From: Rhodocyclales bacterium GT-UBC
Lineage (GTDB): Bacteria > Pseudomonadota > Gammaproteobacteria > Burkholderiales > Rhodocyclaceae
NCBI GenBank assembly: GCA_003583745.1
Contig: QXPY01000003.1
Location: forward strand, 84,052-108,051
DNA: 24,000 nucleotides
Direction: 5' to 3'
Below are positions 2,249-22,200 of the stretch, piece by piece. Made by a program: the position numbers and the translations under genes. A model generated the notes under the pieces. The model made no database searches. It had not been told where the DNA came from and saw only the letters and a list, made by a program, of their open reading frames with translations. How positions within the stretch are numbered: position 1 is the first letter of the stretch; every line of letters starts with the position of its first letter.

Positions 2249-2688
2249 TCATCGGCTCCGCGCATCACCCGGCGGATCGCATCGCCGGAAAAACCGCGAT
2301 ATTGCAAGAATCGCATTTGCTTGGCCCGCTCCTCGGCCGATTGAGGCGGGTTGCGAAACTTTCTCGCCCAAACCGCCTGGCAGCGCTCGGCTTCGTCGCC
2401 AGCTTCGGGCATGGCGGCGGCGATGTCGTCGTCACCCACACCATGCTGCCGAAGATCCTGCTGCAGCCGTGCGTTGCCGTAACGGCTGCTGCGGGCGGCC
2501 ACCCGCTGGCTGGCAAAGCGATGGTCGGAAAGCAGGCGCTCGGCCTGCAAGGTGTCGAGCACTGCATCGAGTTGCGCCTCGCCCTCCGCTTGTGCGGCGA
2601 GCTTGGTCCTCAACTCGGCCCGGCTGTGATCGCGCCGGGCGAGGAGTCGAAGCGCGGCAAGCCGCAGCGCAACAAGCGGATCAGGCAT
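2245..2688 (-). CDS. recX: RecA regulator RecX
   Basis: Follows recA on the same strand. Sequence ([19 protein letters not shown], repeated helical segments) fits the RecX family. The ORF opens at 2766, but the ATG at 2688 gives a typical ~147-aa RecX and overlaps the recA stop (ATGCCTGA). The start is uncertain (2688, 2721 or 2766). The stop overlaps the lptB ATG (ATGA). Confidence 0.8.
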
Positions 2689-3709
2689 CGGTCTTGGCAG
2701 CCTTGACCGGCTTGATGACATTGGTGCTAGCCGCTTCGCGAATGCCCGTCTCGATTTCCTGGGCAATTTCGGGGTGTGCCTTCAAGAACTCGCGGGCATT
2801 GTCCTTGCCCTGACCGATCTTCTCACCCTTGTAGGCGTACCAGGCACCGGATTTGTCGACCAGCTTGTGGGCAACGCCCATTTCGACGATTTCGCCCTGA
2901 CGGGAAATCCCTTCGCCGTAGAGGATATCGAAGATCGCCTCGCGGAACGGGGGAGAGACCTTGTTCTTGACGACCTTGACCTTGGTTTCGCTGCCGATCA
3001 CCTCGTCGCCCTTCTTGATCGAACCGATACGGCGGATATCAAGGCGGACGGAAGCATAAAACTTCAGCGCATTGCCACCGGTGGTGGTTTCCGGCGAACC
3101 GAACATGACGCCGATCTTCATCCGGATCTGGTTGATGAAGATAACCAGGGTATTGGTCTTCTTGATGTTGGCGGTCAGTTTGCGCAGGGCCTGCGACATC
3201 AGGCGGGCGTGCAGGCCGACCATCTGGTCGCCCATTTCGCCTTCGATTTCTGCGCGCGGGGTGAGGGCGGCGACGGAGTCGACGATGATGATGTCGACCG
3301 AGCCTGAGCGCACCAGCATGTCGGCAATTTCCAGGGCCTGCTCGCCGGTGTCGGGCTGCGAGATCAGCAGGTCGCCGACATTGACGCCCAGCTTCTGAGC
3401 ATATTGCGGATCGAGCGCATGTTCGGCATCGATGAAGGCAGCGGTACCGCCCAGCTTCTGCATCTCCGCAACGACCTGCAGACAGAGCGTGGTCTTGCCG
3501 GAGGATTCCGGACCGTAGATTTCGACAACGCGACCGCGGGGCAGGCCGCCGACGCCCAAAGCGATGTCCAGACCGAGCGAACCGGTCGACACAACCTGGA
3601 TGCCTTCGTCGATTTCGGCATCGCCCATCTTCATGATGGAACCTTTGCCGAACTGCTTTTCAATCTGTTGCAGCGCTGCGGCCAGCGCCTTTGCCTTGTT
3701 GTCGTCCAT
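2681..3709 (-). CDS. recA: Recombinase RecA
   Basis: The ORF track gives 411 aa from 3916, but the canonical RecA N-terminus [26 protein letters not shown] begins at residue 70 (ATG 3709-3707) and is preceded by GAGG. Walker [10 protein letters not shown]. Typical 342-aa length. Confidence 0.96.
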
Positions 3710-3893
3710 GGGCGTACCTCGGAAATTTGACGGGATTATGGCACAGGGGCCAAAGATGGAATAGAAATTGCAGAGTTTGCAGAGCTGGTGTAAGCCGCGG
3801 CCAGGAACAAACGATGCTAAGCCGGCAGCAATATCCGGGAAAAGCACGGAAACACGCGGTATATTCTCTGGCTCGCCGTTTCCCGCCCCGGAG

Positions 3894-3913
3894 CACTGGG
3901 TATAAATACAGTA
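3894..3913 (-). promoter_or_regulatory. Putative LexA (SOS) box overlapping a recA promoter
   Basis: The plus strand reads CACTGGGTATAAATACAGTA, which matches TACTGTATATATATACAGTA at 16/20 positions (CTGG-N8-ACAG core). On the minus strand a -35-like TTGCCA (3936-3931) is followed by 17 nt and then TACTGT (3913-3908), so the box overlaps the -10. The site lies about 190 nt upstream of the recA ATG. Confidence 0.5.
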
Positions 3914-3965
3914 CATTTACTGTACGGGCTTGGCAAGCAGATTCTCAATCCATGCCCGATCGCCC

Positions 3966-10400: not shown

Positions 10401-11039
10401 ATGAAAGCACCGGAAGAGAAGATCGTCGTTGCCGGCCCGGTCGGCAACATCGACGTCATCATGGAGCGCCCGGACGCACCGCGCGGTATCGCGCTGATCG
10501 CCCACCCACACCCGATGGGCGGCGGCGCCAATACCAACAAGGTCGCCTATACCCTGGCCCGCACCTTCGCCAGCCTCGGCTATGCCGCCTTCCGCCCGAA
10601 TTTCCGTGGCGTCGGCGGCACCGAAGGCGAGCATGACGAAGGCATCGGCGAGACCGAGGACCTGCTGGCCGTGCTGGAAGAAGCCAAGCGCCGTTGCGGC
10701 GACCTGCCGGTGGCCCTGGCCGGCTTCTCCTTCGGCGCCTACTGCCAGACCCGCGTCGCCAAGCGCTTGGTCGAAGCCGGGCATCCGGCCCAGCGCCTGG
10801 TCCTGGTCGGCACCGCCGCCGGCCATGTCGAGGGCAGCCGCCAGTACGACACCGAAGCCGTGCCGCACGACACCATCGTCATCCACGGTGCCGAAGACAC
10901 GCTGGTCCCGCCTTCGAACGTCTATGCCTGGGCCTTGCCGCTCGACCTGCCGGTCATCATGGTGCCGGGCGCCGACCACTTCTTCCATCGCCGCCTGCAT
11001 CTGATCCGCGACATCATTACCCGCGCATGGCGACACTGA
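10401..11039 (+). CDS. Small alpha/beta-fold hydrolase (COG2945-like)
   Basis: 212 aa with a nucleophile elbow in LAGFSFGAY, IALIAHPHPMGGG, and C-terminal GADHFF. Starts 5 nt after the ferredoxin stop. Confidence 0.75.
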   Translation: MKAPEEKIVVAGPVGNIDVIMERPDAPRGIALIAHPHPMGGGANTNKVAYTLARTFASLGYAAFRPNFRGVGGTEGEHDEGIGETEDLLAVLEEAKRRCGDLPVALAGFSFGAYCQTRVAKRLVEAGHPAQRLVLVGTAAGHVEGSRQYDTEAVPHDTIVIHGAEDTLVPPSNVYAWALPLDLPVIMVPGADHFFHRRLHLIRDIITRAWRH

Positions 11040-11086
11040 ACGTCTCCAAGCTGCGCAAGGTCTATGGCGGCAGCTCCGCAAAATAA
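11027..11086 (+). pseudogene. 19-codon 5' stump of an ABC-transporter ATPase gene
   Basis: ATG at 11027 overlaps the hydrolase stop and encodes MATLNVSKLRKVYGGSSAK*. The first 15 residues parallel [12 protein letters not shown] of the intact ABC ATPase at 20670, including a 22-nt identical stretch. After that stretch the sequence diverges and stops. Confidence 0.55.
11051..11072 (+). repeat. Left copy of a 22-bp perfect direct repeat CTGCGCAAGGTCTATGGCGGCA
   Basis: Identical to 20718-20739. The 15 nt upstream are also 11/15 identical between copies. Sequence downstream of the repeat is unrelated. Confidence 0.9.
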
Positions 11087-11305: not shown

Positions 11306-13498
11306 TCAGCGTTCAAAACTGAAGGCGAAACGCTCACCTTGGCGCCAGCGATGTAAATGCTTTTTCAGGAAGACGCCGAAGGGGTTGCCGCTGCTGGGCA
11401 TGTTGGCCAGGTAGGGATTGATCGCACCAGGGGCGAGATCGAAGACCATCTTGAAACTGGTGCCGAAGCTGTATGAACTGCCCCCACCGCCACCTTGGCC
11501 GCTGGTCAGGAAGTCGCAATTGCGGCGCAAGGCCGGGATTGTCTCGCGCGATCCGCCGTCGTAAGGATGCGAGGCGGAGAGTAGGCGACGCAGCAGGGGA
11601 TGGCGGCGCAGGGTGTGGCGATAATCGACGCGCGGAGGCTCGCTGTTACCGGTGCAGACCGAACGATAGGCGTCGCCGACGATGACTGCCACGGAAGCCG
11701 GCAGCGGCCAGTCGGCATCCGGCTCAAACACGATGGCCATGATATTCCAGCGATGCGCCGGCCACATGTCGAGGTAGCGCACGGCCAAGGGAAGCGACAG
11801 TTCGGACGAGAGAACGCGCAGACAGATGGCTTCGACCCAGCGCTCGAAGAGCAGCGATGGCCCGACGATGCGGGTATCCCCGCGCCACCCGGCGAGCGAC
11901 GAACCGGCCTGTGTCGAGGCGTCGAGCAGGGCCCATAGTCTGGGCATCCAGGTTGCGGCGAAGAGGTCGACGCGGTCATCCTGGATCGCCACGAAGCTGG
12001 CCGCGTCGTGCTGCGCCGTCGCGTCGAGCAGTTCGCGGATGCGCCAGGCCCGCGAAGGTGGGTGCCAGCGGTTGGAGATGTAGGGGGCCGGGATGAAATG
12101 CGTCGAATACTGATTGGCGTACAGGGCGACATCGTCGGGCGGGTTGAACTGGCTCGGCATGTCGTCGAAGGGCACATAGCCGCGCCAATCCCAGCGCGCC
12201 TCGGCGAGCGGCAGGAGCAGGCTGCCCGCTGCTTCGAGACCCTTTTCGCGCGCCGGTAGCAGGCCATAGACCTGCGTACCGATATTGTTCTCGCGGTCGG
12301 CATAAGCCGCGACACCGGGGGCGTTCTGCAAGCGCGCCAGCGCCGCGCGAAACTCCGGCCAGTTGCTGGCGCAATTGAGGGCGTACAGGCTGACCGAGCC
12401 GAGGCCGCGATCGAGCGCTGGCCAGCGCAGGAACAGGCCGAGGCCGTTACGTTCGAGCAGCATTTGCCCACCGGCGAAACCGTAGCTGCGATGGACCTCG
12501 CCCTTGCCTCGGCGTAGGCCGATTCCGCTTTCCCGACAGTCCAGCACCTCCCAACCGCGGAAAGTACGGACGCGCCTCCCGGCGAGATCCACCTCGCCCA
12601 CGAACAGATCCTGATTGTCCATCATCACGCCGGTCATACCCCAGGCGATGTCTCGGTTACGCCCGATGACGATGCCCGGTGCGCCGGGGAAATTTGAACC
12701 GAAAACGTCGAGTTTTCCGGCTGACCGCAGATGGAAGAAAAGATTGAAGCCGGGGCTGACCAAGCCCATGTGCGGATCGCTGCCGAGCAGGGGAAATCCG
12801 GATTTCGTCCGTTGCCCGCGCACCGCGAAGACATTGGAGCCGATATCCGGCGATTCCAGGCCAAGTTTGTCCAGTCCGCTGCGCGCCGAAACCAGCAGTT
12901 CCTCCAGCGCCGTGCCGAATTCATTGGCCGCGCCGGCCGGCAGGGCCGGGTGGGTCTGTCCGGCCTCGTCCATGCTCGAAAACAGGCACGCCGCCCGCTG
13001 CGTGCCCAGGGCCGAGGTCACCAGGCTGTGATAAAGCTCGAACTGCCAGGCCGAATTGATGAAATATTTGAGATGCGCCACCAGGTAGACGTCGACCAGG
13101 CTGAACGCCTGCGGACGATAGCCGAGGGCGATGAATTCGGCGGGCAGGATTTTCGTCTCGACCAGGGCCTGGTTGATGCCCTCCACGTAGGCTCGCAAAT
13201 GGCTGCGCTCGGCTGCGTTGTCCGGATCGTCGACGGCCCGCTCGGCCAGTCTGCGCAAGTCCAGGCTGCGCTGAAAGCGGTCGGTCGCCAGCGACGCCGT
13301 GCCCAAAACTTCGCTCAGCGTACCGCTGGCCAGGCGACGGGTCAGGTCGAGCTGCCAGAGCCGCAGGCGTCCGGTGGCGTAGCCCTGGGCGTGATAGACG
13401 GCGGTATCGCTATCGCCCTCGATGCTCACCAGTTGCGTGTTGGGGAGCGTGATCGTGGCCTTGCCCCAGGCGCTCCGCAGGGAGATTCGCCGCTTCAT
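11306..13498 (-). CDS. Penicillin-acylase (peptidase S45) family Ntn hydrolase without a signal peptide
   Basis: Family N-terminal region (YHAQGYATGRLRLWQLDLTRRLASGTLSEVLG...DRF) and a probable autoprocessing site G|SNVFAV with the Ser codon at 12838-12836, followed by LLGSDPHMG. The ORF track extends to 13891, but that stretch is Arg/Ala-rich overlap with the upstream SDR gene. The ATG at 13498 overlaps the SDR stop (ATGA) and gives 730 aa starting MKRRISLRSAWGKATITLPN, with no hydrophobic signal. Confidence 0.85.
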   Translation of the reverse strand: MKRRISLRSAWGKATITLPNTQLVSIEGDSDTAVYHAQGYATGRLRLWQLDLTRRLASGTLSEVLGTASLATDRFQRSLDLRRLAERAVDDPDNAAERSHLRAYVEGINQALVETKILPAEFIALGYRPQAFSLVDVYLVAHLKYFINSAWQFELYHSLVTSALGTQRAACLFSSMDEAGQTHPALPAGAANEFGTALEELLVSARSGLDKLGLESPDIGSNVFAVRGQRTKSGFPLLGSDPHMGLVSPGFNLFFHLRSAGKLDVFGSNFPGAPGIVIGRNRDIAWGMTGVMMDNQDLFVGEVDLAGRRVRTFRGWEVLDCRESGIGLRRGKGEVHRSYGFAGGQMLLERNGLGLFLRWPALDRGLGSVSLYALNCASNWPEFRAALARLQNAPGVAAYADRENNIGTQVYGLLPAREKGLEAAGSLLLPLAEARWDWRGYVPFDDMPSQFNPPDDVALYANQYSTHFIPAPYISNRWHPPSRAWRIRELLDATAQHDAASFVAIQDDRVDLFAATWMPRLWALLDASTQAGSSLAGWRGDTRIVGPSLLFERWVEAICLRVLSSELSLPLAVRYLDMWPAHRWNIMAIVFEPDADWPLPASVAVIVGDAYRSVCTGNSEPPRVDYRHTLRRHPLLRRLLSASHPYDGGSRETIPALRRNCDFLTSGQGGGGGSSYSFGTSFKMVFDLAPGAINPYLANMPSSGNPFGVFLKKHLHRWRQGERFAFSFER

Positions 13499-14481
13499 GC
13501 GCCCTGGCTCTCGCTCGCCTCGGGCAGCAGCGTCCGAACGTACTCGTCGAAACGCTCGCCGAAAGTCGAACAATGATCCTGCCAGGGCCAACCCAATTCG
13601 GACTCGGCTCGCGTGCTGCTGTACAGATAGCTGCTGCCGTCCATGACCTGCAAGGCTTCCCTCGACAAGGGCAGACGAACGCCCAGCGGTCGTAGGGCAT
13701 CGCAGATTCGCGCCGGCCAGCGCAATGATGCGGGCAGCACCTTTTTCGGCAGCGGCAGCCCGGCCACCGCCGCCGCGCGCTCGATCAATTGCGCCATGCC
13801 GACCGTTTCCCCGGTCAGCAGATAGTTCCGCCCGATAACGCCGTGCTCCAGCACGCGCCGCAAGCCATCGCAGACGGCATCGACCGGGCACAGCTGGAAG
13901 CGGCTCTCGCTGACCACCTGCAGGGGCAGCTTGCCGTGCACGAATTGGCCGAGCGCCTGGGCCAGGTCGCTTTGGTCGCCGGGCCCGAAAATGCCGCCGG
14001 GAATGGCGATAATGACGGGCGCCCCACGTTGTTGCATCGCTTCGGCCAGGCCATGGCCGACGTGTTTCGTCTGCTCGTAGAACGAGCGGAAGTGCCCGTT
14101 GTGACGGCTGCTTTCATCTCCCAGACCGCCCTCCGTTTCGCCAAGGGCGGCGGTGCTGCTGACATGAATGATGCGAGGTACCCCGGCACGCCATGCCGCG
14201 TAGAGGACTTGGCGCGTCGCTTCGATATTCGCTGCCGCCATCTCACTCCGGTCGACGCCACCGATCCGGTAACGCGCCGCCAGATGAATCACCGCATCGC
14301 AAGAGGCCAGATCCGCCTGCCAGCCACCGGGCGTTTCGAGCTTGGCCGGGACAAACTGAGCCGGCAGATCGACCGGCGCGCCGGGCCGAACGACGGCCAG
14401 CACCTCATGGCCGGCGGCGCTCAGGTGTCTTGTCAGATGGCGGCCGACAAAGCCGTTGGCCCCGGTCAGAAAAATTTTCAT
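13495..14481 (-). CDS. Extended SDR (NAD-dependent epimerase/dehydratase/reductase family)
   Basis: Starts MKIFLTGANGFVGRHL (Rossmann GxxGxxG) at 14481, overlapping the LuxC-like stop (ATGA). Contains a YEQTK catalytic Y-x3-K. About 328 aa. Confidence 0.85.
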   Translation of the reverse strand: MKIFLTGANGFVGRHLTRHLSAAGHEVLAVVRPGAPVDLPAQFVPAKLETPGGWQADLASCDAVIHLAARYRIGGVDRSEMAAANIEATRQVLYAAWRAGVPRIIHVSSTAALGETEGGLGDESSRHNGHFRSFYEQTKHVGHGLAEAMQQRGAPVIIAIPGGIFGPGDQSDLAQALGQFVHGKLPLQVVSESRFQLCPVDAVCDGLRRVLEHGVIGRNYLLTGETVGMAQLIERAAAVAGLPLPKKVLPASLRWPARICDALRPLGVRLPLSREALQVMDGSSYLYSSTRAESELGWPWQDHCSTFGERFDEYVRTLLPEASESQGA

Positions 14482-15566
14482 GGTGTCGTGTCGCAACTGA
14501 TAAAACGCACCCATTGCGCCAGCTCCCACTGGCCGTCGTGCGGCGCGGTCAACGGGCGTTCGTGCATGCGCCCGAGGCGGCAGCGGTGATACACCGGCAC
14601 ATCGTCGGGGAATTCGGCTGATACGGCGTCCGATGCCGGCCAGATGCCGAAGGTCTGCAAAATGGGCGCCAGCATCGCCGAGCCGGCGACGATCAGGCGG
14701 AACCCGCGGGGCAACCAGTTGGCAGTGTCCATGGCCGAAATGGAAACGCCCCAGCCGGTTTCCGCATTGACCTCAAGCTTGACGGCCTCGCCCAGCCGTG
14801 CCAGCAGCGCCAATTCGCGCGCTTTGAGCAACTGGCGCAAGCGAATTTCCTCGGGAAGCGACGGCAAGTTGGCAAGCCTCGCCACCAGGGCCGCAAATAC
14901 GGCCTTCGCCGTGTCATCGTCCGGCACCAGAACGAACTGCGGCGAACTGCAAACGTTTTGCATGAACAGGCACGTATCGCGGATCAGCGCATCGATACAG
15001 GCGTTCTGCAAGGCGGCTGACGCCGGCCACTCGGCTATGCCGGCGCCGCTCATCTGCGGGCCGTATTCGATGAGGCGCACACCCGGTGCCGCGACCTGCC
15101 GATAATGCCGGATCAGGTCGGCGCTGCCGGCCATGAGAACGGCATCGACGGCGGTCAGCAGTTCGTCGTCCCTTTGCGACAGGCTATCCCAGTCGGCAAT
15201 CCGGCAGGCATCGTCGTTCCAGCCCAGTGCGTCGCGCAATGCCAGGAGCGCTGGCTGGCTGCTGCGCGACTTCAGCGTTAGGCGGTTGCCGGTCAGTGCT
15301 GCCGCCACCAGCGCAGCAATCACGCCGAGATGGTCGTTTTCGCTGATCACCGCCAGCACGTGCCCAAGGGGTCGCCATGAGCGGTCGCCGAGGTCGGCGT
15401 TCATTTTTGCGGTGAGTACCTTCTCATCGGCCAGCATCCTGACCCGCTGGCGACAGAATTCCGCCGTCGCCACATCGGCCACCGGCCAGTCATCCTGCCA
15501 ACCCTGGAGGCAGAGGCGCAGGGCACTGGCCACCTCGGCCGGCGAACGCCTGAAATCGACGGTCAT
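14478..15566 (-). CDS. LuxC-like acyl-CoA (acyl-protein) reductase
   Basis: 362 aa that aligns by eye with Photorhabdus/Vibrio LuxC. [34 protein letters not shown] matches [41 protein letters not shown] matches DQRACFSAQ, which holds the catalytic Cys. There is a C-terminal HDG motif. It is shorter than the ~480-aa canonical LuxC. Confidence 0.72.
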   Translation of the reverse strand: [362 protein letters not shown]

Positions 15567-16612
15567 GCCGCCGCAGAAGCAGCCTGCGCCGCGCAGGTCG
15601 CCGACGGATCACTGGCGCGTCCGAGGAATTCCAGCCAGGGGCGCGCCTTGCCACAGGCACAGCCACTCCCCATGCGGCCGAGGTCTTCGCTCAGCAGATC
15701 GTGGCTCGGTAGCGAGGCGAAGAAGGGATTCTGCAGGCGGATCAGGCCGCTTTCGCCGGGCGCGGCCGGCGCGCCGTCGGCCCGCACGATCTCCAGCCGC
15801 GAATAGCGCGGGATATGAAAGCGGCCGTGCGGGCAACTGATGTAATGCAGCGGATGTTCGGTCATGCCGAAAATATCCCGAATATCGACCTTTGCCGCGC
15901 CGCCCAACGCCTCGCCGAGACGGGCCATGATCTGCGGGCGGTCCATTTTCCGCGTCATGCCTTTCCAGCCGCCGCCGGTCAGGCCACGCACCATGTTGCG
16001 GAAGGGTAGCGGCGTTTGTGGCGCACTCAGTGCCAAATACTCGAAATGCACGGTCAACCCGAAAATAAAGCAAAAATCGCCATCCTTCGCCCAGCGCGCC
16101 AAGGTTTCCCAAGCCAGTTCAGGCTGAAAGCGTCCGCTGTCATCGACGGCGAAGACGATGTCGGCACTCGGCGCACATGCCGTGAAGCGCAGGAAGCTCG
16201 TCGCGTAACCGGCTTGCGGTGCCCGCCGGGGATCGGGCGAGAGCAGCAGGAAGCGGGCGGGATGCTGACTGACCATGCCCTGGCGATAAAAAATCTGGCG
16301 CATGCCGGCCTCGATGCGCCGCATGCTGGCTGCGTCGAAAAAGACCGACGCCGGACCGTTTTTTCCCGTACCCGAACTCGACAGCCACACGCCTTCGCCC
16401 TCGACCGGCGTCCCCAATTCGCAGCGCTTGAACAGTCCAACCGGGATCAGTGGCCGCTGTTCGCCTTCCCAAAGCGCGGCGTAGGCCGGGTTGCGCGCAC
16501 GGTGCCAGGCATCCGCCTCGGCCATGGCGGCATTGAAGAGAGCGTCGTCGGCCGCCCCGGCATAGGGGTCGTCCAGTAGGCTGAGTTGGTCGATGCTTGA
16601 CGGCGTATTCAT
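15563..16612 (-). CDS. LuxE-like acyl-protein synthetase (ANL/PaaK-like)
   Basis: 349 aa. LSSSGTGKNG matches FTSSGTNG of LuxE. LTGGGWK matches ITGGGWK. IRDIFGMTEHPL matches IRDIFNQVELNT. The C-terminal Cys (SATCAA) lies where the acylated Cys of LuxE sits. ATGA overlaps with both neighbours. Confidence 0.75.
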   Translation of the reverse strand: MNTPSSIDQLSLLDDPYAGAADDALFNAAMAEADAWHRARNPAYAALWEGEQRPLIPVGLFKRCELGTPVEGEGVWLSSSGTGKNGPASVFFDAASMRRIEAGMRQIFYRQGMVSQHPARFLLLSPDPRRAPQAGYATSFLRFTACAPSADIVFAVDDSGRFQPELAWETLARWAKDGDFCFIFGLTVHFEYLALSAPQTPLPFRNMVRGLTGGGWKGMTRKMDRPQIMARLGEALGGAAKVDIRDIFGMTEHPLHYISCPHGRFHIPRYSRLEIVRADGAPAAPGESGLIRLQNPFFASLPSHDLLSEDLGRMGSGCACGKARPWLEFLGRASDPSATCAAQAASAAA

Positions 16613-17826
16613 GGAAGCGTGTTGAACCCGTTGAAAGTCTGTTCGGAAAGTCTGGCCATGTCGCGCACCAGGACGCGCAAGTTGGGACCGTGGTTGATCA
16701 GCGCCCGATGGTCATGCGCCTGGCTGATCACGACCGCGTTGTCGCCCCAGGGCACGGCGTCAGACGAGGCGACCAAGGGGCCGCACGGCGCTGCACTGAC
16801 ATGGCGCAGCGGAAAATGGTCGTCGCCAATTTCGAGGCAACGTGCCAGAAGGTCGGGCGCGCGTCGGCGAATCGCCTCGACCGTCGCCGCCACCGGTTCG
16901 CCGTCATGGCCGCTGACGGCCGTGCTGACGGCCTGGTTGGCAGCATTGACGAACCAGGTTTGCGGCACCGACTGCTCCGCGGCGTTCGTTCCGGAAATGG
17001 CCTGTGAAAACTCCCTGGCCTGGGCCAGCTGCCCTGCCAATCCGGCGTAATGGCAGGGCAGACCGACGTCCCTCCAGCTTCTGGCATCGAAAATGTCGAA
17101 GCCGGCAACCGGCTCGCCAGTTCGATCCATCAAGCGCGATTCGGCCGGCAGGAGTTGATACACCGACGGACAACTGGCCACAGCTTCGGCGCTGAAGCCG
17201 TGGAAGCGCCGGGTGGCCGGCCAATAGCCATTCTGCAGCATGTTGATGGTGTTCCACGAGCCGAGCCAGGGCGGGCCGAAGGCATACCACTTGGCGACCG
17301 ATTCACGCATTTCCGGACGGCATTCCCTGAGCCAGTAGCGAATGGCCATGTTGGCGACGGACTGGCCAATGATGATGATTTTCTGGTCCGCGCCGAAGCG
17401 CGATTGCAAGCGCTCGATTTCAATTTCGATCAGCCGGCCGAGGCGCCGGTAGTCGGCCCGCCAGTCGTAGGCAAGAAAGAAGAGGTCGCAATCCAACCGA
17501 TAGCCCAGACCGACTTCGAGCACGTTGACCACGTCGCGGGTGACGATGCTGCTGAACAAGCCCGGCACGATCTGGAATTCATACAGGGTCTGGTTGGCGA
17601 GCACGCGCCAGGGATCGTCATGGTCGACCCCGTAGTCGGCCTCGTGCGGCTGACGAAAGAGCAGGCCGCGGTAATCGCCCCAAATGTATTCGCCGCACTG
17701 CCGATCGAAGAGCTTGGTCCCGAACAGCCCGGGAATGTAGAGCACAGGCAGCCGGCGAGCCGGCGACTGGCGGGATGAACGCAAAACGACGCGCGAGCGC
17801 AGCCGGGAGTACGCCTTGGCAAGCAT
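16609..17826 (-). CDS. LCAT-family (lecithin:cholesterol acyltransferase-like) alpha/beta hydrolase
   Basis: 405 aa with IPGLFGTKL, the family hallmark YDWR (FLAYDWRADY), and the nucleophile elbow IIIIGQSVAN at the position of the GHSLG motif. Confidence 0.7.
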   Translation of the reverse strand: MLAKAYSRLRSRVVLRSSRQSPARRLPVLYIPGLFGTKLFDRQCGEYIWGDYRGLLFRQPHEADYGVDHDDPWRVLANQTLYEFQIVPGLFSSIVTRDVVNVLEVGLGYRLDCDLFFLAYDWRADYRRLGRLIEIEIERLQSRFGADQKIIIIGQSVANMAIRYWLRECRPEMRESVAKWYAFGPPWLGSWNTINMLQNGYWPATRRFHGFSAEAVASCPSVYQLLPAESRLMDRTGEPVAGFDIFDARSWRDVGLPCHYAGLAGQLAQAREFSQAISGTNAAEQSVPQTWFVNAANQAVSTAVSGHDGEPVAATVEAIRRRAPDLLARCLEIGDDHFPLRHVSAAPCGPLVASSDAVPWGDNAVVISQAHDHRALINHGPNLRVLVRDMARLSEQTFNGFNTLP

Positions 17827-17833
17827 TCAGCGA

Positions 17834-19249
17834 TCAGCGGGGCTGCAGCGGGGCCGGCGGTACGTCGCAGCTTCCGGATTGCGATTGCTCGGTAAGGACC
17901 GTCGGGAAATGTGCCCGGTCAAACACTTCCAGCACGCGAACATCCTTGTCCGCATCGAGATCGATGCGCATGGCCACGACCCGCGCACTCGGCTTCGATA
18001 CCAGGAATCGCAGGCAGGACGATTGCCCACCCATGATTTCCTTGCCATCGGCATCGAGGAAAACATAGCGGATGGGGTTTTCCGTGGCTTGCTCGATGTG
18101 TGCCGCGCCAATCGCCCCACGGAAAACGTGGGTCAGCGAACGACCGGGCTTGCCGGCAAACGCGACCGGCTTGCTTGTTTGGGGCAGGTTCACGATAGGT
18201 AAAACGTGCCCGCAGTGGCCGCATCGATTGCCGTCGAGATGCAACGCAATGCCTTCGCCACTGCGCCGGATCACAACCTCACGGCACTGAGGGCAACAGG
18301 TGTCGACGCTTACGGTATTGGCGGTATTGCCCAAATAGACAAATTTCACGCCGGCATCAAGCGCTTGGCGCCGGGCCTGTTCCAGAAAATTCACATCGGT
18401 TCGCGCCACCTGCGTATACAGGTAATCGGGGTGGAAACGCACATAGTGCAAGGGAATCTCGTCGTCCAGGTTGTCCAGCATCCAGTCGCAGACCCGGCGA
18501 GCCTGTTCGAGGTTGTCGTTGCGCCCGGTGATGCATAGGTTGGACACTTCGAGGTGCGGTCCGCGGCCGCCCTGGCGCGCCCGGTAAACCTGCTTGATAC
18601 CTTCGAGCACTGGCTGCAACTCGCTGCGCGTGAATTTGCGGTAGAAGTCGGCATCCAGCGATTTCAGTGAAATGCTGAAAATGTCCATGACCTCGAGCAA
18701 CTCGTCGATGGCCTCCGGCCCGATGGAAAAGGCTGACTTGTATAGATTGCGCAAACCGGCCTGACGGGCGAGGCGCGCCGTGTCCATGACGAACTCTTGC
18801 CAGACCACCGGATCGTTATAGGTCCACGACAGGATGCCGATGCCGTGACGCACTGCGTAATCGACGACCTGCTCCGGCGTGTAGCGGGCAATATCCTGCT
18901 CACGAACCAGCCTCGCCTGACTGGTCTGCCAGTTCTGGCAGAAGTCGCACTTAAGCATGCAGCCGATGTTGCCGAGCGACAGGATCGGAGCGCCCGGAGC
19001 GTAATGGTAAACCGCCTCGGATTCGATGCGCTCTTCGGTCATCGGCACCGATTTGCCGTAATTCAGCGTCAGGAGCTCGCCGTTGCGGTTGTAACGCACG
19101 CCGCAGAAGCCGAGGCCGCCCTCGGGGATGCGGCACTTGCGGGGTGACAGGTGGCATTCGACTCGGCCGTTAGGCAGCGCCTTCCATAGGCTGGCAGGAT
19201 GCATTCCGTCCTGGAGGGACGCGGTCAAGGTGTGGAGTTTGTCGGACAT
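17834..19249 (-). CDS. Radical SAM enzyme, AmmeMemoRadiSam/PFL-activase-like, with an extra C-terminal domain
   Basis: 471 aa with the CX3CX2C motif in GNIGCMLKCDFCQNW and a family-like N-terminus (LWKALPNGRVEC...GFCGVRYNRNGELLTLNYG). Also LHYVRFHPDY, YLGN and a Cys4 ribbon (CCPQC...CGHCG). About 115 further residues follow with no motif I recognise. Confidence 0.85.
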   Translation of the reverse strand: MSDKLHTLTASLQDGMHPASLWKALPNGRVECHLSPRKCRIPEGGLGFCGVRYNRNGELLTLNYGKSVPMTEERIESEAVYHYAPGAPILSLGNIGCMLKCDFCQNWQTSQARLVREQDIARYTPEQVVDYAVRHGIGILSWTYNDPVVWQEFVMDTARLARQAGLRNLYKSAFSIGPEAIDELLEVMDIFSISLKSLDADFYRKFTRSELQPVLEGIKQVYRARQGGRGPHLEVSNLCITGRNDNLEQARRVCDWMLDNLDDEIPLHYVRFHPDYLYTQVARTDVNFLEQARRQALDAGVKFVYLGNTANTVSVDTCCPQCREVVIRRSGEGIALHLDGNRCGHCGHVLPIVNLPQTSKPVAFAGKPGRSLTHVFRGAIGAAHIEQATENPIRYVFLDADGKEIMGGQSSCLRFLVSKPSARVVAMRIDLDADKDVRVLEVFDRAHFPTVLTEQSQSGSCDVPPAPLQPR

Positions 19250-19251
19250 CG

Positions 19252-20223
19252 TTATCGGGACTCAATCAATTTTCCCTGCGCGGCGAGAACCATGCCGACG
19301 TAGGTGTCATGTAGAAATGTCATAACCGTCTGCTGTGCAGCGGGGAATGGGGCATTCTGGGCACCGATGCGAACAAAGCCGGCGCCCTTCTGCAAACCGA
19401 CCGTCAGCTTTTCATCAGTGCGATAGCCACGCCGCATGACGTCCTGGAAAAGCGGGTGCGTATCCAACCCGAAGAGCAGCAGGTCGTGCCGGATCAGTTC
19501 TTTCGGCGTCATGCTGCTCAGCATGGCCATTTCAAAATGCCAGTCTTCTTCCTGCAATGCCTTATCGAGATTGCGCTTCGGATCGGTCTTCAGGGACAGC
19601 GGCAGTTCAAGCCGGGCAGTGGCCACCGTGTATTTGAACGGCCCGATGCCCAGCGAAATGTCGAGTGCCGGCGACGGGTCGGCCGCCGTACGAATATCGC
19701 GAACTTGGGCAAAAGTATCGATCAGCCGTGACGAGAACGGCGGGGCGACAATCTGGGCCTGAGCCTGGGCCGGCGTCAGTACGACCTGCTTTTCTTCGCC
19801 GATCGTCACCGTCCACCCATCCACCTCCGCCCTATCCGGCGAACCGGCACCCGGCACCGTGTAGGTGCTCAGGCGGTTGTGCCAACCATTGCTATCCTTG
19901 CTGATGACGAGATGGATCAGGTAGGGCCGCGACCGCGTTCCCCACTGACCTTTTGCATGTAGCAGGACATCGGCGACGATGGCACTTTCGCCATACACAT
20001 GATTGTTGGCAATGCGAATCTCGCGCCGAGCTTCATCAACACTGGCCACGGTATGTGCGTCATCGATTACCAGCCGATTCGACACCCCTGCCTGCTGCGT
20101 TCCCGCCGCCGTCGGAAGCCGCATGATGAGCGGCCCCGTTAGTTCCGCGGCCGACACATCCAAAGTTACCATCAAGCCCACTCCCAACCCCAAAAGCCCT
20201 ACCAGATTCAGAAACACGGTCAC
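19252..20223 (-). CDS. Hypothetical protein, probably exported or membrane-anchored
   Basis: 323-aa ORF from a GTG at 20223, ending 2 nt before the radical SAM ATG. The N-terminus MTVFLNLVGLLGLGVGLMVTLDVSAAE is signal/anchor-like (VSA|AE) but has no basic n-region. An alternative ATG at residue 18 (20172) is preceded by GGGAG and would remove the hydrophobic segment. I recognise no family. Confidence 0.6.
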   Translation of the reverse strand: MTVFLNLVGLLGLGVGLMVTLDVSAAELTGPLIMRLPTAAGTQQAGVSNRLVIDDAHTVASVDEARREIRIANNHVYGESAIVADVLLHAKGQWGTRSRPYLIHLVISKDSNGWHNRLSTYTVPGAGSPDRAEVDGWTVTIGEEKQVVLTPAQAQAQIVAPPFSSRLIDTFAQVRDIRTAADPSPALDISLGIGPFKYTVATARLELPLSLKTDPKRNLDKALQEEDWHFEMAMLSSMTPKELIRHDLLLFGLDTHPLFQDVMRRGYRTDEKLTVGLQKGAGFVRIGAQNAPFPAAQQTVMTFLHDTYVGMVLAAQGKLIESR

Positions 20224-20256
20224 ACTGCACGAAAATTCAATTGGAATAATGACAAC

Positions 20257-20285
20257 ATTCTAACGAGCAAGCCCGCCGAGCACAA
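20257..20285 (-). promoter_or_regulatory. Putative sigma-70 promoter of the seven-gene operon
   Basis: Minus strand: TTGTGC (20285-20280), 17-nt spacer, TAGAAT (20262-20257), 34 nt upstream of the GTG at 20223. It lies in an AT-richer spacer. Confidence 0.25.
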
Positions 20286-20669
20286 CGAACAATCGCCGTG
20301 TTGCGACAACGAAGACGAATTCGAGGCGGCGTGGCGTGCCAACGGCAAATCTCAGGGTCTGCCGGAAAATCTGGCCAAATCGAAATTTCGAGGACTGGCT
20401 GCGGCTCAGACCGTGCAAAAACGCCGCCTGACAGGAATCCTGGAAGCGCCGTTCGGCTATAGCGGAAGACAGACCGAGAGAAATAGAAGGTGGCGGATTG
20501 GCCGTCAGGCTGCCCGGCCATGCCTTCATCAACGCCACTACGCTCAGGAGATTCACGTATTGTTCCGACTAGCGGTAAAGTATGTCTCCCTCGACACGAT
20601 GCAATAACTGGTAAGACCAAAATTACCTGAAACTCTGGCATATCGTGCTCAATCGACAGAATACTCCCA

Positions 20670-21611
20670 ATGCCCATGGCCCATCCCAATACAGCTTGTC
20701 CGCTGATTGTTTCCAACCTGCGCAAGGTCTATGGCGGCAACGAAGTCGTTGCCGGGCTTTCGTTCGCCGTCCAGCCCGGCACCTGTTTCGGCCTGCTCGG
20801 GCCGAACGGGGCCGGCAAGACGACGACGCTGCGCCTCTGCCTCGGCCTCACTGCACCGGATAGCGGCGAGATCAGCCTGGCCGGCCGGCCGATTCCCGGC
20901 GAAGCCCAGCAGGCCCGGGCCAAGGTCGGCGTCGTGCCGCAGTTCGACAACCTCGACCCCGATTTCACCGCCAGCGAAAACCTGCTCGTCTTCGGCCGCT
21001 ATTTCGGCCTCAAGGAAGCCGAAGTCAAGGCGCGCATTCCGCAATTGCTCGAATTCGCCGGCCTCACCGGCAAGGCCGATGCCCGCATCGCGACCCTCTC
21101 CGGCGGCATGAAGCGCCGGTTGACCCTGGCCCGCGCCCTGGTCAACGACCCCGATATCGTCTTCCTCGACGAACCGACCACCGGTCTCGACCCGCAAGCC
21201 CGCCACCTGATCTGGGACCGCCTGAAACAACTCAAGTCGGCCGGCAAGACGCTGATCCTGACCACCCATTTCATGGACGAGGCCGAACGCCTGTGCGACC
21301 GGCTGATCGTCATCGACCACGGCAAGAAGATCACCGAAGGCAGCCCGCGCCAGTTGATCGCCGAGCACATCGAACCCCAGGTTGTCGAAGTCTTCGACGA
21401 AGGCAGCCACGACCTGCAAGGTTTCGTCGAAGCCAACCGCCAACTGGCCGAACGCGTCGAAACCAGCGGCGAAACCGCCTTCTTCTACTGCCGCGAACCG
21501 CGCCCGCTGCTGGCCAAACTGGCCGAAGCCGACGGCCTGCGCTACGTGCACCGCGCCTCCAACCTGGAAGACGTCTTCATCAAGCTGACCGGTCGGGAAC
21601 TGCGGGATTGA
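20670..21611 (+). CDS. ABC transporter ATP-binding protein, ABC-2/NodI-DrrA type
   Basis: 313 aa with Walker [11 protein letters not shown]-loop VVPQFDNL, signature [15 protein letters not shown], Walker [13 protein letters not shown] and H-loop TTHFMDEAE. No Shine-Dalgarno sequence precedes either ATG (20670 or 20676). An in-frame TGA at 20628 prevents any upstream extension. Confidence 0.9.
20718..20739 (+). repeat. Right copy of the 22-bp perfect direct repeat CTGCGCAAGGTCTATGGCGGCA
   Basis: Identical to 11051-11072. It lies within codons 17-24 of the intact ABC ATPase gene. The two copies are 9667 bp apart (start to start). Confidence 0.9.
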
Positions 21612-22200
21612 GCGCCGGGCCGGCCTCCGGCCAATCGGCTTCGAACACCCCGGCATAGCGGAACACCTCGCCGAAAAGCGGGTGGGTCAGGCGGAAATCC
21701 ATCGCGAAATGGCACTCGTCGATGGCCGCCTCGACGATCGTCGTATGCCCGAGCAGCAGCCATTCCGGGATCGGCAAGACCAGTGGCCCAAGCTTGACGA
21801 CGAAGCGCACACCCCGGTAATGCAGGCGGCCGTCCTCGACGTAAGGCGCCATCTGCAGGCCACAGACCGGATTGACGTACTCGATCACCTGACCCGGCCC
21901 GGCCGCCACCCAGAAGCTGTTGAAGCGAATGAGCCGGCCATCGGGGAAGACGATGCGCCGCCGCCAGTACTGGCGCTCGCCGACCACCTATTTCTCGACC
22001 CGGGTGGCGACGCCCCGGCCACGGCGATGCACCAACGCGCCGACCAGTCGCAGCAGCAAGAGCAGGGGCCACATGAAACGCGGAAATTCGATATCCAGAT
22101 GCCCGATATCGGTGCTCGTCCCGAAGCGGTAATGCGCCTGCAAAGCCGGCGGCAAGCGGTCCCAATCGGCGCCCAGCGCCTGTTGCATGAGGCTTTTCAT
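21580..22200 (-). pseudogene. DUF4166-family gene interrupted by an in-frame TAG
   Basis: ATG at 22200 (MKSLMQQALGADWDRLPPALQAHYR, a typical DUF4166 N-terminus) runs 70 codons to a TAG at 21990-21988. The same frame then continues for 135 codons (VVGERQYWRRRIVFPDG...FRYAGVF). The combined length of about 205 aa fits the family. The start overlaps the DUF2269 stop (ATGA). Confidence 0.7.

Follow-up and report, generated by a model that had tools for sequence, protein, structure and literature searches.

A conserved six-gene cassette built around a luciferase-less LuxE/LuxC pair in Rhodocyclales bacterium GT-UBC and other bacteria

Background

What does a LuxE/LuxC pair do in a gene cluster that holds no luciferase? 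The question is raised by a 24,000-nucleotide stretch of DNA from Rhodocyclales bacterium GT-UBC (contig QXPY01000003.1, positions 84,052 to 108,051; this whole stretch is referred to below as the window), in which seven consecutive open reading frames (ORFs) on the minus strand span 11306-20223. In order of transcription these genes, g1 to g7, specify a protein without a recognizable family, a radical S-adenosylmethionine (SAM) enzyme, an LCAT-like hydrolase, a LuxE-type acyl-protein synthetase, a LuxC-type reductase, a short-chain dehydrogenase/reductase (SDR) of the extended type, and an acylase of the penicillin acylase family (Table 1). The original prediction, made from the sequence alone, read them as one seven-gene operon for the biosynthesis, or the salvage and remodelling, of an acylated small molecule or unusual lipid. 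The analysis described here was carried out to follow up that prediction; its main result is that six of the seven genes recur together as a cassette in distantly related bacteria.

Distribution and gene order of the cassette

A scan with a LuxE-like alignment, carried out on one genome per species for 185,579 species, returned 17 loci, and tblastn analysis found all six enzyme genes together in 16 of these. The set is also present in six of six close metagenome loci and in contigs L025 and L026 (loci are given by L numbers), so that the neighbourhood comparison proposed earlier does reveal co-occurrence in other genomes. Approximately 25 further cassette loci were found in Rhodocyclales, Burkholderiales, Pseudomonas, Budviciaceae, Proteus/Providencia and Myxococcota. 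Since the same six genes recur together across these loci, distant lineages included, their arrangement is not a product of chance.

Two cyclic gene orders are spread over three phylum-level groups. The order radical SAM-LCAT-LuxE-LuxC-SDR-acylase is found in Dechloromonas, Thauera sinica, Rhizobacter, Pseudomonas sp. F1_0610, a Kofleriaceae metagenome-assembled genome (MAG) and a Pseudomonadota MAG, and the cyclic permutation LuxE-LuxC-SDR-acylase-radical SAM-LCAT in Budvicia, Limnobaculum, Leminorella, Proteus and Providencia. Overlaps of 4 nt at the LuxE/LuxC and LuxC/SDR junctions recur in distant lineages (for example L004, L006, L009 and L010), and the same six genes are present even in L025, whose LuxE-like protein diverges most among those found (44% identity). 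The LuxE-like clade comprises 81 clusters, with identity dropping from 44% to 26% at its edge, and the LCAT-like clade comprises 47 clusters at 39% identity or above, with the next matches reaching only E ~1e-7; by these searches both clades occur essentially only in the cassette. The percent identities of the six proteins co-vary across loci in a tblastn comparison, which suggests that the block is inherited as a whole.

Sequence comparison suggests that the cassette is made of two modules, one of LuxE-LuxC-SDR, with or without the acylase, and one of the radical SAM and LCAT-like genes. The exception among the 17 genome loci, a Rhodospirillaceae MAG (L018, 8504-13106), has LuxE-LuxC-SDR only, without the radical SAM, LCAT-like and acylase genes. 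In that locus a 486-aa polytopic membrane protein is encoded ahead of LuxE-LuxC-SDR across a 15-nt gap, and no Pfam family matches it even at E ≤10 (signal-peptide and membrane calls here and below were made by inspection).

The conserved unit is smaller than the seven genes first proposed, with g1 accompanying the cassette only in L002 (86% identity) and L013 (38%). No match to g1 was found in Pfam (even at E ≤10), NCBIfam or PADLOC, and its family is small, with 79 representatives among 1.84 billion proteins. Its dN/dS relative to the Dechloromonas copy is 0.16. The long GTG start of g1 is supported by the alignment of homologues from residue 5-16 onward, and the hydrophobic N-terminus is common to them. 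These comparisons mark g1 as a lineage-specific accessory of the cassette, confined to some Betaproteobacteria, and its product may be exported or membrane-anchored.

Organization of the gene cluster

When the ORF coordinates were rechecked against the sequence, the minus-strand array, its gaps and its overlap positions were all reproduced exactly as first described. Gaps of 2 nt and 7 nt separate g1 from g2 and g2 from g3, and the remaining four junctions are ATGA stop/start overlaps (16609-16612, 15563-15566, 14478-14481 and 13495-13498). A consensus scan of the block found no internal promoter-like sites, where 1.9 were expected, and seven terminator-like sites, where 8.8 were expected, which leaves both internal promoters and internal terminators unsupported; no Rfam family was found anywhere in the window. 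Values of dN/dS between 0.07 and 0.22 across all seven genes, relative to the Dechloromonas copy, indicate purifying selection.

Family calls were made against the curated cut-offs of the Pfam and NCBIfam/TIGRFAM hidden Markov models (HMMs), and six assignments lie above these thresholds: radical SAM/TIGR04337, LCAT, LuxE, LuxC, extended SDR and penicillin amidase. The motifs by which the lux-type proteins were originally recognized are present in the translations (for LuxE, SSSGT, TGGGWKG and IRDIF; for LuxC, NVCSSPQ). The absence of luxA, luxB and luxD also held, as neither the cassette genes nor the larger flanking ORFs of the window gave a luciferase or LuxD-family Pfam match.

Table 1. 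Positions of the seven genes and of the sequence features at the edges of the block, numbered within the window
Feature	Position	Strand	Description
g1	19252..20223	-	323 aa, family-less, hydrophobic signal-like N-terminus
g2	17834..19249	-	471 aa, long-form radical SAM enzyme; PF04055 8.7e-14, TIGR04337
g3	16609..17826	-	LCAT/LPLA2-fold alpha/beta hydrolase (candidate lipid esterase or acyltransferase); PF02450 1e-10
g4	15563..16612	-	LuxE-type acyl-protein synthetase; PF04443 4.4e-13
g5	14478..15566	-	LuxC-type thioester reductase, short form, 362 aa; PF05893 3.8e-18
g6	13495..14481	-	Extended SDR, probable aldehyde/ketone reductase; PF01370 6.6e-28
g7	11306..13498	-	Penicillin-acylase-family N-terminal nucleophile (Ntn) amidase, 730 aa; PF01804 3.8e-122
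Upstream leader	20224..20289	-	Common to Dechloromonas copy; upstream edge of transferable block (blastn)
Direct repeat, left copy	11036..11072	+	37 nt; inside 19-codon ABC ATPase stub (ATG at 11027)
Direct repeat, right copy	20703..20739	+	37 nt; 89% identical to left copy; inside intact ABC ATPase gene 20670-21611

Mobility of the cassette

The genes that flank the cassette differ in every genus, and no further conserved gene families were found next to it in the other loci. In the Budviciaceae its neighbours are the atp operon with a LysR gene in divergent orientation on one side and glmU on the other. Comparison of the window with its closest relative, a Dechloromonas MAG (L002), by blastn showed DNA homology confined to 11315-20289, at 89.8% identity. 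Outside this segment the window carries a pair of direct repeats, the left one within an ABC ATPase stub (11027-11086) that translates as MATLNVSKLRKVYGGSSAK up to its stop codon and overlaps the stop of an alpha/beta-hydrolase gene (10401-11039). Together the repeats and the stub look like the recombination scar of an insertion of approximately 9.6 kb. The intact ABC ATPase gene on the right is not followed by a recognizable permease ORF in any forward frame (20670-22200). Judged from these comparisons, the cassette is a self-contained, horizontally moving metabolic block, and this extends to the copies in Proteus and Providencia.

For the copies in Proteus and Providencia the annotation goes no further than hypothetical, 'LuxE/PaaK family acyltransferase' or 'lipase/acyltransferase domain-containing'. 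In Providencia stuartii NCTC11800 (L005, 13135-15325) the acylase gene is split by a frameshift near codon 600, and in Limnobaculum eriocheiris (L012, 9968-11026 and 15437-16824) a frameshift near codon 65 affects the radical SAM gene, and the LuxE ORF is broken as well. Such copies may represent decay of the cassette, or sequencing or assembly error. No match to the cassette DNA was found in 5,426 E. coli genomes, and the six-gene combination was not found on plasmids, which carry only a distant sister clade of the LuxE-like protein.

The LuxE/LuxC core

The g4 protein is 100% identical to a protein of Rhodocyclales bacterium GT-UBC, which identifies the window as part of a Rhodocyclales MAG. 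Its assignment to the LuxE family is well above threshold (PF04443, 49.3 bits against a cut-off of 24.9), and a profile of g4 orthologues matches the LuxE chain of a cryo-EM structure (7xc6_E, 1.1e-17), with Lys217 of the TGGGWK motif aligned to LuxE Lys238. The reference residues of LuxE are Lys238, Arg355 and Cys364 (PMC9157457), the last of which bears the acyl thioester (PMC9157457, PMC12041015). In the tail of g4, Arg332 and Cys340, the latter nine residues before the C-terminus, are kept in 31 of 33 sequences. The two residues mirror Arg355 and Cys364 of LuxE. This tail falls outside the HMM alignment, and by its position Cys340 would be the equivalent of Cys364.

The LuxC-type protein g5 scores 66 bits against PF05893 (cut-off 21). 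Its profile matches LuxC chain 7xc6_A (2.1e-9), and its Cys206 aligns with chain Cys285, which we infer to be the catalytic Cys296 of PMC9157457 because the chain numbering is offset by 11 residues; VCSSP is invariant among g5 orthologues. The protein is 362 aa long compared with 488 for LuxC, has some 80 fewer residues at the N-terminus, and its alignment ends at chain residue 447 (about 458 in the numbering of PMC9157457), before the segment P460-P488 that serves LuxC as an oligomerisation/cleft element (PMC9157457). It scores 20.3 bits against the LuxC equivalog NF052251, where the cut-off is 750. By these alignments g5 is a minimal LuxC. The conserved residues lend good support to adenylation and thioester formation on Cys340 by g4, and to reduction at Cys206 by g5, as the predicted chemistry of the pair.

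The pair resembles the lux fatty-acid reductase (LuxC-LuxE-LuxD of luxCDABE) in the active-site Lys and tail Cys of the LuxE-type protein, in the catalytic Cys of the LuxC-type protein, in the adjacency and translational coupling of the two genes, and in the availability of a separate hydrolase to supply the acid. It differs from that system in several respects: luxA/B and a LuxD-family transferase are missing, the acid could instead come from an LCAT-fold enzyme or an Ntn amidase, the set extends to an SDR and a radical SAM enzyme, g5 is about 120 residues shorter, and identity to LuxE and LuxC is low. On this evidence the cassette is a deep, luciferase-less variant and not a lux operon. The use of a LuxC-family protein without luciferase has a precedent in TabE, which has been reported to serve tambjamine biosynthesis as a LuxC-like stand-alone reductase (bioRxiv 10.1101/2025.08.11.669332).

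The nearest sister clade of g4 (26-33% identity) belongs to another set of luciferase-less and uncharacterised clusters, in which LuxE is accompanied by a LuxC::AMP-binding fusion. Unlike the cassette, these clusters contain a PaaK-like ligase, GNAT and MFS genes and the long fused reductase, and they lack the radical SAM, LCAT-like, SDR and acylase genes. Members were seen on Streptomyces linear plasmids, on conjugative Salmonella IncF plasmids and on metagenome contig L037 (L019 5230-12671, L020 8851-13728, L037 7057-13529). The LuxC/AMP-binding-like fusion is approximately 800-914 aa long, and the clusters carry the annotation 'acyl-protein synthase/acyl-CoA reductase'.

Hydrolases and SDR

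The hydrolase g3 scores 41.9 bits against PF02450 (cut-off 21), and its AlphaFold (AF2) model, with a pLDDT of 92, has as top Foldseek matches LPLA2 (4x95), LCAT (4xx1) and Tle4, with TM scores of 0.55-0.66 and E values of 4e-10 to 1e-7 for LPLA2 and LCAT. In the model Ser156 is placed in a strand-helix elbow, between strand 150-155 and helix 158-168. The predicted triad is Ser156/Asp335/His373; its Asp and His do not vary among the sequences compared, and conservation of the Ser reaches at least 90%. The model thus assigns g3 to a true LCAT/LPLA2 fold. Enzymes of the LCAT/LPLA2 type move an acyl chain of a glycerophospholipid to water or to a lipophilic alcohol. With LCAT and lysosomal phospholipase A2, g3 shares the fold and a similarly spaced Ser-Asp-His triad, but it is bacterial and cytoplasmic, is only about 15% identical, and has the elbow G-Q-S-V-A in place of G/A-x-S-x-G.

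The acylase g7 matches PF01804 over its full length (410 bits). Its Ser221 aligns with residue 1 of the beta chain of solved acylases (35sz_C, 4hst_B and penicillin G acylase), and G-S-N and DPHMG are conserved in its orthologues. With penicillin G acylase, glutaryl acylase, D-succinylase and PvdQ it thus shares the Ser-Asn start of the beta chain and the DPH motif; it differs in having no signal peptide, in having a best solved relative, D-succinylase 7eby, at only 1.9e-40, and in beta-chain residue 24 (beta24), which is Met in g7 and Arg in D-succinylase, glutaryl-7-ACA acylase and an unnamed 'penicillin acylase family protein'. A cytoplasmic location, which had been proposed from the sequence, agrees with an N-terminus (MKRRISLRSAWGK) that has no hydrophobic core by inspection, and since residues 25-33 already align with mature alpha chains there is no room for a leader. 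A resemblance to PvdQ was considered but did not hold: PvdQ matches only beta-chain residues 1-69 (8e-6), more weakly than D-succinylase, glutaryl acylase and penicillin G acylase do, and g7 scores 35 bits against the PvdQ equivalog, for which the cut-off is 950.

The original prediction saw in g3 a possible counterpart of LuxD. This is possible, but acylase g7 is more tightly linked to LuxE-LuxC-SDR; since gene order and the conserved ATGA coupling tie it closest to these genes, either hydrolase could play the part of LuxD.

The SDR g6 matches PF01370 (98 bits) as well as PF07993 and PF01073, and its TGxxGFxG (TGANGFVG) and YxxxK/YExTK (YEQTK) motifs are conserved. Its nearest NCBIfam models are HpnA (6e-45), SdmB (2e-29) and OleD (1.4e-18), all of which it matches below the equivalog cut-offs (153.5 against 367.65, 103.3 against 600 and 67.3 against 580 bits, respectively); these nearest named relatives act on lipid ketones. 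The OleBCD olefin pathway likewise combines an alpha/beta hydrolase, an adenylate-forming enzyme and an SDR. An OleABCD-like pathway was rejected for the cassette, which lacks an OleA thiolase, has in LuxE an enzyme other than the OleC-type beta-lactone synthetase, and matches the OleD model far under the cut-off.

The radical SAM enzyme

The radical SAM protein g2 carries an invariant CX3CX2C motif (Cys97/101/104) and seven more invariant cysteines (32, 39, 49, 319, 322, 343 and 346). Its AF2 model (pLDDT 89) has a core like that of pyruvate formate-lyase (PFL) activase, with PFL activating enzyme 3c8f as the best solved match, followed by a C-terminal seven-stranded beta-sandwich with conserved motifs (approximately residues 370-442). 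The protein has about 120 extra residues, and the C-terminal extension gives no Pfam match even at E ≤10. Compared with TIGR04337 enzymes and PFL activase, g2 shares the family score and the core fold but has no AMMECR1, Memo or glycyl-radical-enzyme partner and carries the added beta-sandwich.

The label of AmmeMemoRadiSam type given to g2 in the original prediction is correct to the extent that the protein passes the TIGR04337 cut-off (276.5 bits against 220). We take that family to be defined as a three-gene system with co-located AMMECR1 and Memo homologues. Neither gene was found among the window ORFs scanned, in the Pfam lists for L001, L025 and L026, among the families conserved in the flanks of 17 loci, or beside the enzyme in approximately 25 loci, and g2 is for this reason not considered part of an AmmeMemoRadiSam system. 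Literature searches found no function assigned to AmmeMemoRadiSam enzymes.

The long-form clade to which g2 belongs is widespread, with 1,873 matches at E ≤1e-10, and since it is spread over quite different clusters g2 is more plausibly a tailoring enzyme, and the database name over-reaches. Several of these clusters may be described here. In L022 (8001-13276) and L029 (2856-7877) the long-form gene lies beside genes for a Cys_Met_Meta_PP pyridoxal-phosphate (PLP) enzyme, FA_desaturase, LGT or an LGT-like protein, and hexapeptide-repeat proteins, and in L028 (4544-10477) it lies behind acyl carrier protein (ACP) and AMP-ligase genes. Translational coupling of the radical SAM gene to a gene for a cystathionine-synthase-type PLP enzyme recurs in these three loci, in Planctomycetota and Proteobacteria, and this cluster is apparently undescribed. 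In Actinomadura sp. ATCC 31491 (L021, 2918-13257) the long-form gene is part of a phosphoenolpyruvate (PEP) mutase cluster of the phosphonate type, with HMGL-like, PhyH, GFO_IDH_MocA, phosphoribosyltransferase, beta-eliminating-lyase and ATP-grasp genes as neighbours. In a Chloroflexi MAG (L024, 7581-13719) and in Actinoplanes siamensis (L027, 7050-12285) it heads an operon of three radical SAM genes, one of them HemN-like; the Chloroflexi operon also holds a flavoprotein gene. An ORF of 68-94 aa upstream of the operon in both loci could encode a peptide substrate.

Two other ideas were tried and rejected. Transfer to an ACP in the manner of ArsL, considered on account of the PLP-enzyme neighbours that relatives of g2 often have, finds no support, as ArsL belongs to a separate family, and g2 has neither its NF040542 match nor its RCCLKC tail. 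A system for ribosomally synthesized and post-translationally modified peptides was rejected for the cassette as no conserved small precursor ORF was found upstream or downstream of it in 12 loci.

Proposed pathway and alternatives

The best reading of the cassette, which we put forward tentatively, is a lipid-oriented reductive pathway. An acid would be supplied by one or both of the hydrolases: g7, as a cytoplasmic Ser-Ntn amidase coupled to LuxE-LuxC-SDR, may cleave an N-acyl amide, and g3 may draw on a glycerolipid, whose ester-linked acyl chain it would remove by forming an acyl-enzyme at Ser156. The acid would be adenylated by g4 by way of Lys217 and then held as an acyl thioester on Cys340 of the flexible tail, from which g5 would accept the acyl group on Cys206 and reduce it to an aldehyde, presumably with NADPH as in LuxC. 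To judge from its family and its translational coupling, g6 would then form an alcohol from the aldehyde or from a keto group. The part of g2 would be a radical reaction, independent of oxygen, at the chain or the product, and g3 may re-esterify the alcohol product in the manner of LCAT. What such a pathway would most likely yield is a reduced lipid-like molecule at the level of an aldehyde, alcohol or ester. Because ATP, two reducing equivalents and SAM are spent, the pathway looks like one of biosynthesis or remodelling and not one that yields energy.

The features that point towards lipid are the LCAT/LPLA2 fold of g3, the HpnA, SdmB and OleD relatives of g6 and the Met at beta24 of g7, together with the ACP/AMP-ligase, FA_desaturase and LGT genes beside relatives of the radical SAM enzyme and the membrane protein of L018. 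The broad proposal of the original prediction, that an acylated molecule or lipid is made, or else salvaged and remodelled, agrees with all of the findings and stands on firmer ground with the LCAT/LPLA2 fold, the lipid-ketone relatives of the SDR and the conserved LuxE/LuxC residues; it needed correction in three places, the size of the unit, the radical SAM label and the LuxD role.

Several observations count against a lipid pathway. The LuxC-like g5 is without the P460-P488 part of the long hydrophobic cleft of LuxC and some 80 N-terminal residues, and the acyl group need therefore not be a long fatty chain. D-succinylase, the nearest solved relative of g7, cleaves N-succinyl-D-amino acids, and the clade of g2 is also found in PEP-mutase and triple-radical-SAM clusters that are not obviously related to lipid. 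The cassette holds no acyl carrier protein, transporter or regulator that points to a product, and the roles proposed for g2, g3, g6 and g7 are drawn from family resemblance and gene order.

A more specific version of the lipid-oriented pathway would make it a complete oxygen-independent route, in which acyl chains of membrane lipids are reduced by LuxE/LuxC and g2 acts directly on the resulting aldehyde or alcohol to give an undescribed reduced lipid or hydrocarbon. As examples, g2 could form an alkane through radical decarbonylation, or it could carry out C-H functionalisation or C-C coupling on the chain. We regard this version as improbable. If true, it would provide the first function for the long-form clade and a new lipid in Providencia and Proteus.

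Among the other explanations, the one that survives best is still an unlikely one: the product could be a non-lipid specialised metabolite, with LuxE/LuxC reducing a polar or amino-acid-derived carboxylate, the radical SAM enzyme tailoring the product, and the acylase removing a protecting N-acyl group. In some polysaccharide loci short hydroxy acids are the substrates of LuxE/LuxC homologues, and the short form of LuxC, the relation of g7 to an enzyme acting on N-succinyl amino acids, and the occurrence of g2 relatives in a PEP-mutase cluster and beside PLP enzymes would all suit such a scheme. It is opposed by the lipid-enzyme fold of g3, by the lipid-ketone reductases that are the nearest models of the SDR and by the hydrophobic beta24 residue of the acylase. 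Further, the cassette contains no non-ribosomal peptide synthetase, polyketide synthase, aminotransferase or exporter gene, and it lies among housekeeping genes, such as the atp operon and glmU in Budviciaceae.

It is also possible, though quite unlikely, that the cassette is catabolic or detoxifying, and that an imported N-acylated compound (an acyl-homoserine lactone (AHL), N-acyl amino acid or lipopeptide) is deacylated and its chain converted to a harmless alcohol by LuxE, LuxC and the SDR. The penicillin acylase family includes AHL and lipopeptide deacylases, a weak local PvdQ match was seen in g7, and both the translational coupling of g7 to LuxE-LuxC-SDR and the patchy, island-like distribution, typical of niche-specific accessory functions, would be expected of such a route. 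However, known AHL and lipopeptide acylases are exported, whereas g7 has no signal peptide, and no transporter is conserved with the cassette. Such a route would spend ATP, two equivalents of reductant and SAM on a chain open to beta-oxidation, which makes little sense, and it would leave the radical SAM and LCAT-like enzymes without a role.

A third explanation would make g2 a protein activase, similar to PFL activating enzyme, that installs a radical or another modification on a protein of the cassette. The most likely target would be its neighbour g3, to which the actual catalysis would then belong. The structures and HMMs nearest to g2 are indeed those of glycyl-radical-enzyme activases, g2 and g3 are always adjacent in cassette loci, and g2 is the most conserved protein of the set (53-58% identity between Rhodocyclales and Enterobacterales). 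Yet none of the cassette proteins showed a glycyl-radical-enzyme domain or, at the C-terminus, a glycyl-radical motif, all activase equivalog models are far under cut-off (the best, TIGR02493, gives 39.7 bits against 231.75), and the same radical SAM clade occurs in other clusters without an LCAT-like partner, so that an activase role is very improbable. That g2 is a true AmmeMemoRadiSam member with unrelated neighbours, as its TIGR04337 score and the NCBI names of its orthologues would have it, is scarcely credible given the lack of AMMECR1 and Memo in the window and in the other loci, the additional residues of g2, and cassette partners that are strictly conserved across phyla.

Elsewhere in the window, at 2681-3916, the longest RecA ORF is 411 aa, but its RecA domain does not begin before residue 76, and translation probably starts at an internal codon.

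Conclusions

No match to any of the seven proteins was found with PADLOC, which leaves a role in anti-phage defence unsupported, and literature searches that paired LuxE/LuxC with radical SAM, penicillin acylase, lecithin, Proteus and lipid/anaerobic terms, or used AmmeMemoRadiSam, returned no description of the six-gene set. The earlier statement that the gene combination is not recognizable as a characterised pathway still stands, as no paper, defence-system model or annotated record was found to describe it. What is new here is the conserved six-gene cassette around a luciferase-less LuxE/LuxC pair; LuxE and LuxC themselves are well known from bioluminescent bacteria.

The cassette places a deep-branching LuxE/LuxC pair in a fixed set of six enzymes whose genes pass among Betaproteobacteria, Gammaproteobacteria and Myxococcota. 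Many Providencia stuartii and Proteus genomes conserve the set, in which every member is named 'hypothetical' or carries a borrowed name. Identification of its product would show what an orphan pathway does in bacteria of clinical relevance, and would provide the first reaction for a radical SAM clade of more than 1,800 clusters that is mislabelled as AmmeMemoRadiSam. It may also reveal a new route from membrane lipids to products at the aldehyde or alcohol level, which would be of relevance to lipid biology and to fatty alcohol and hydrocarbon biotechnology.

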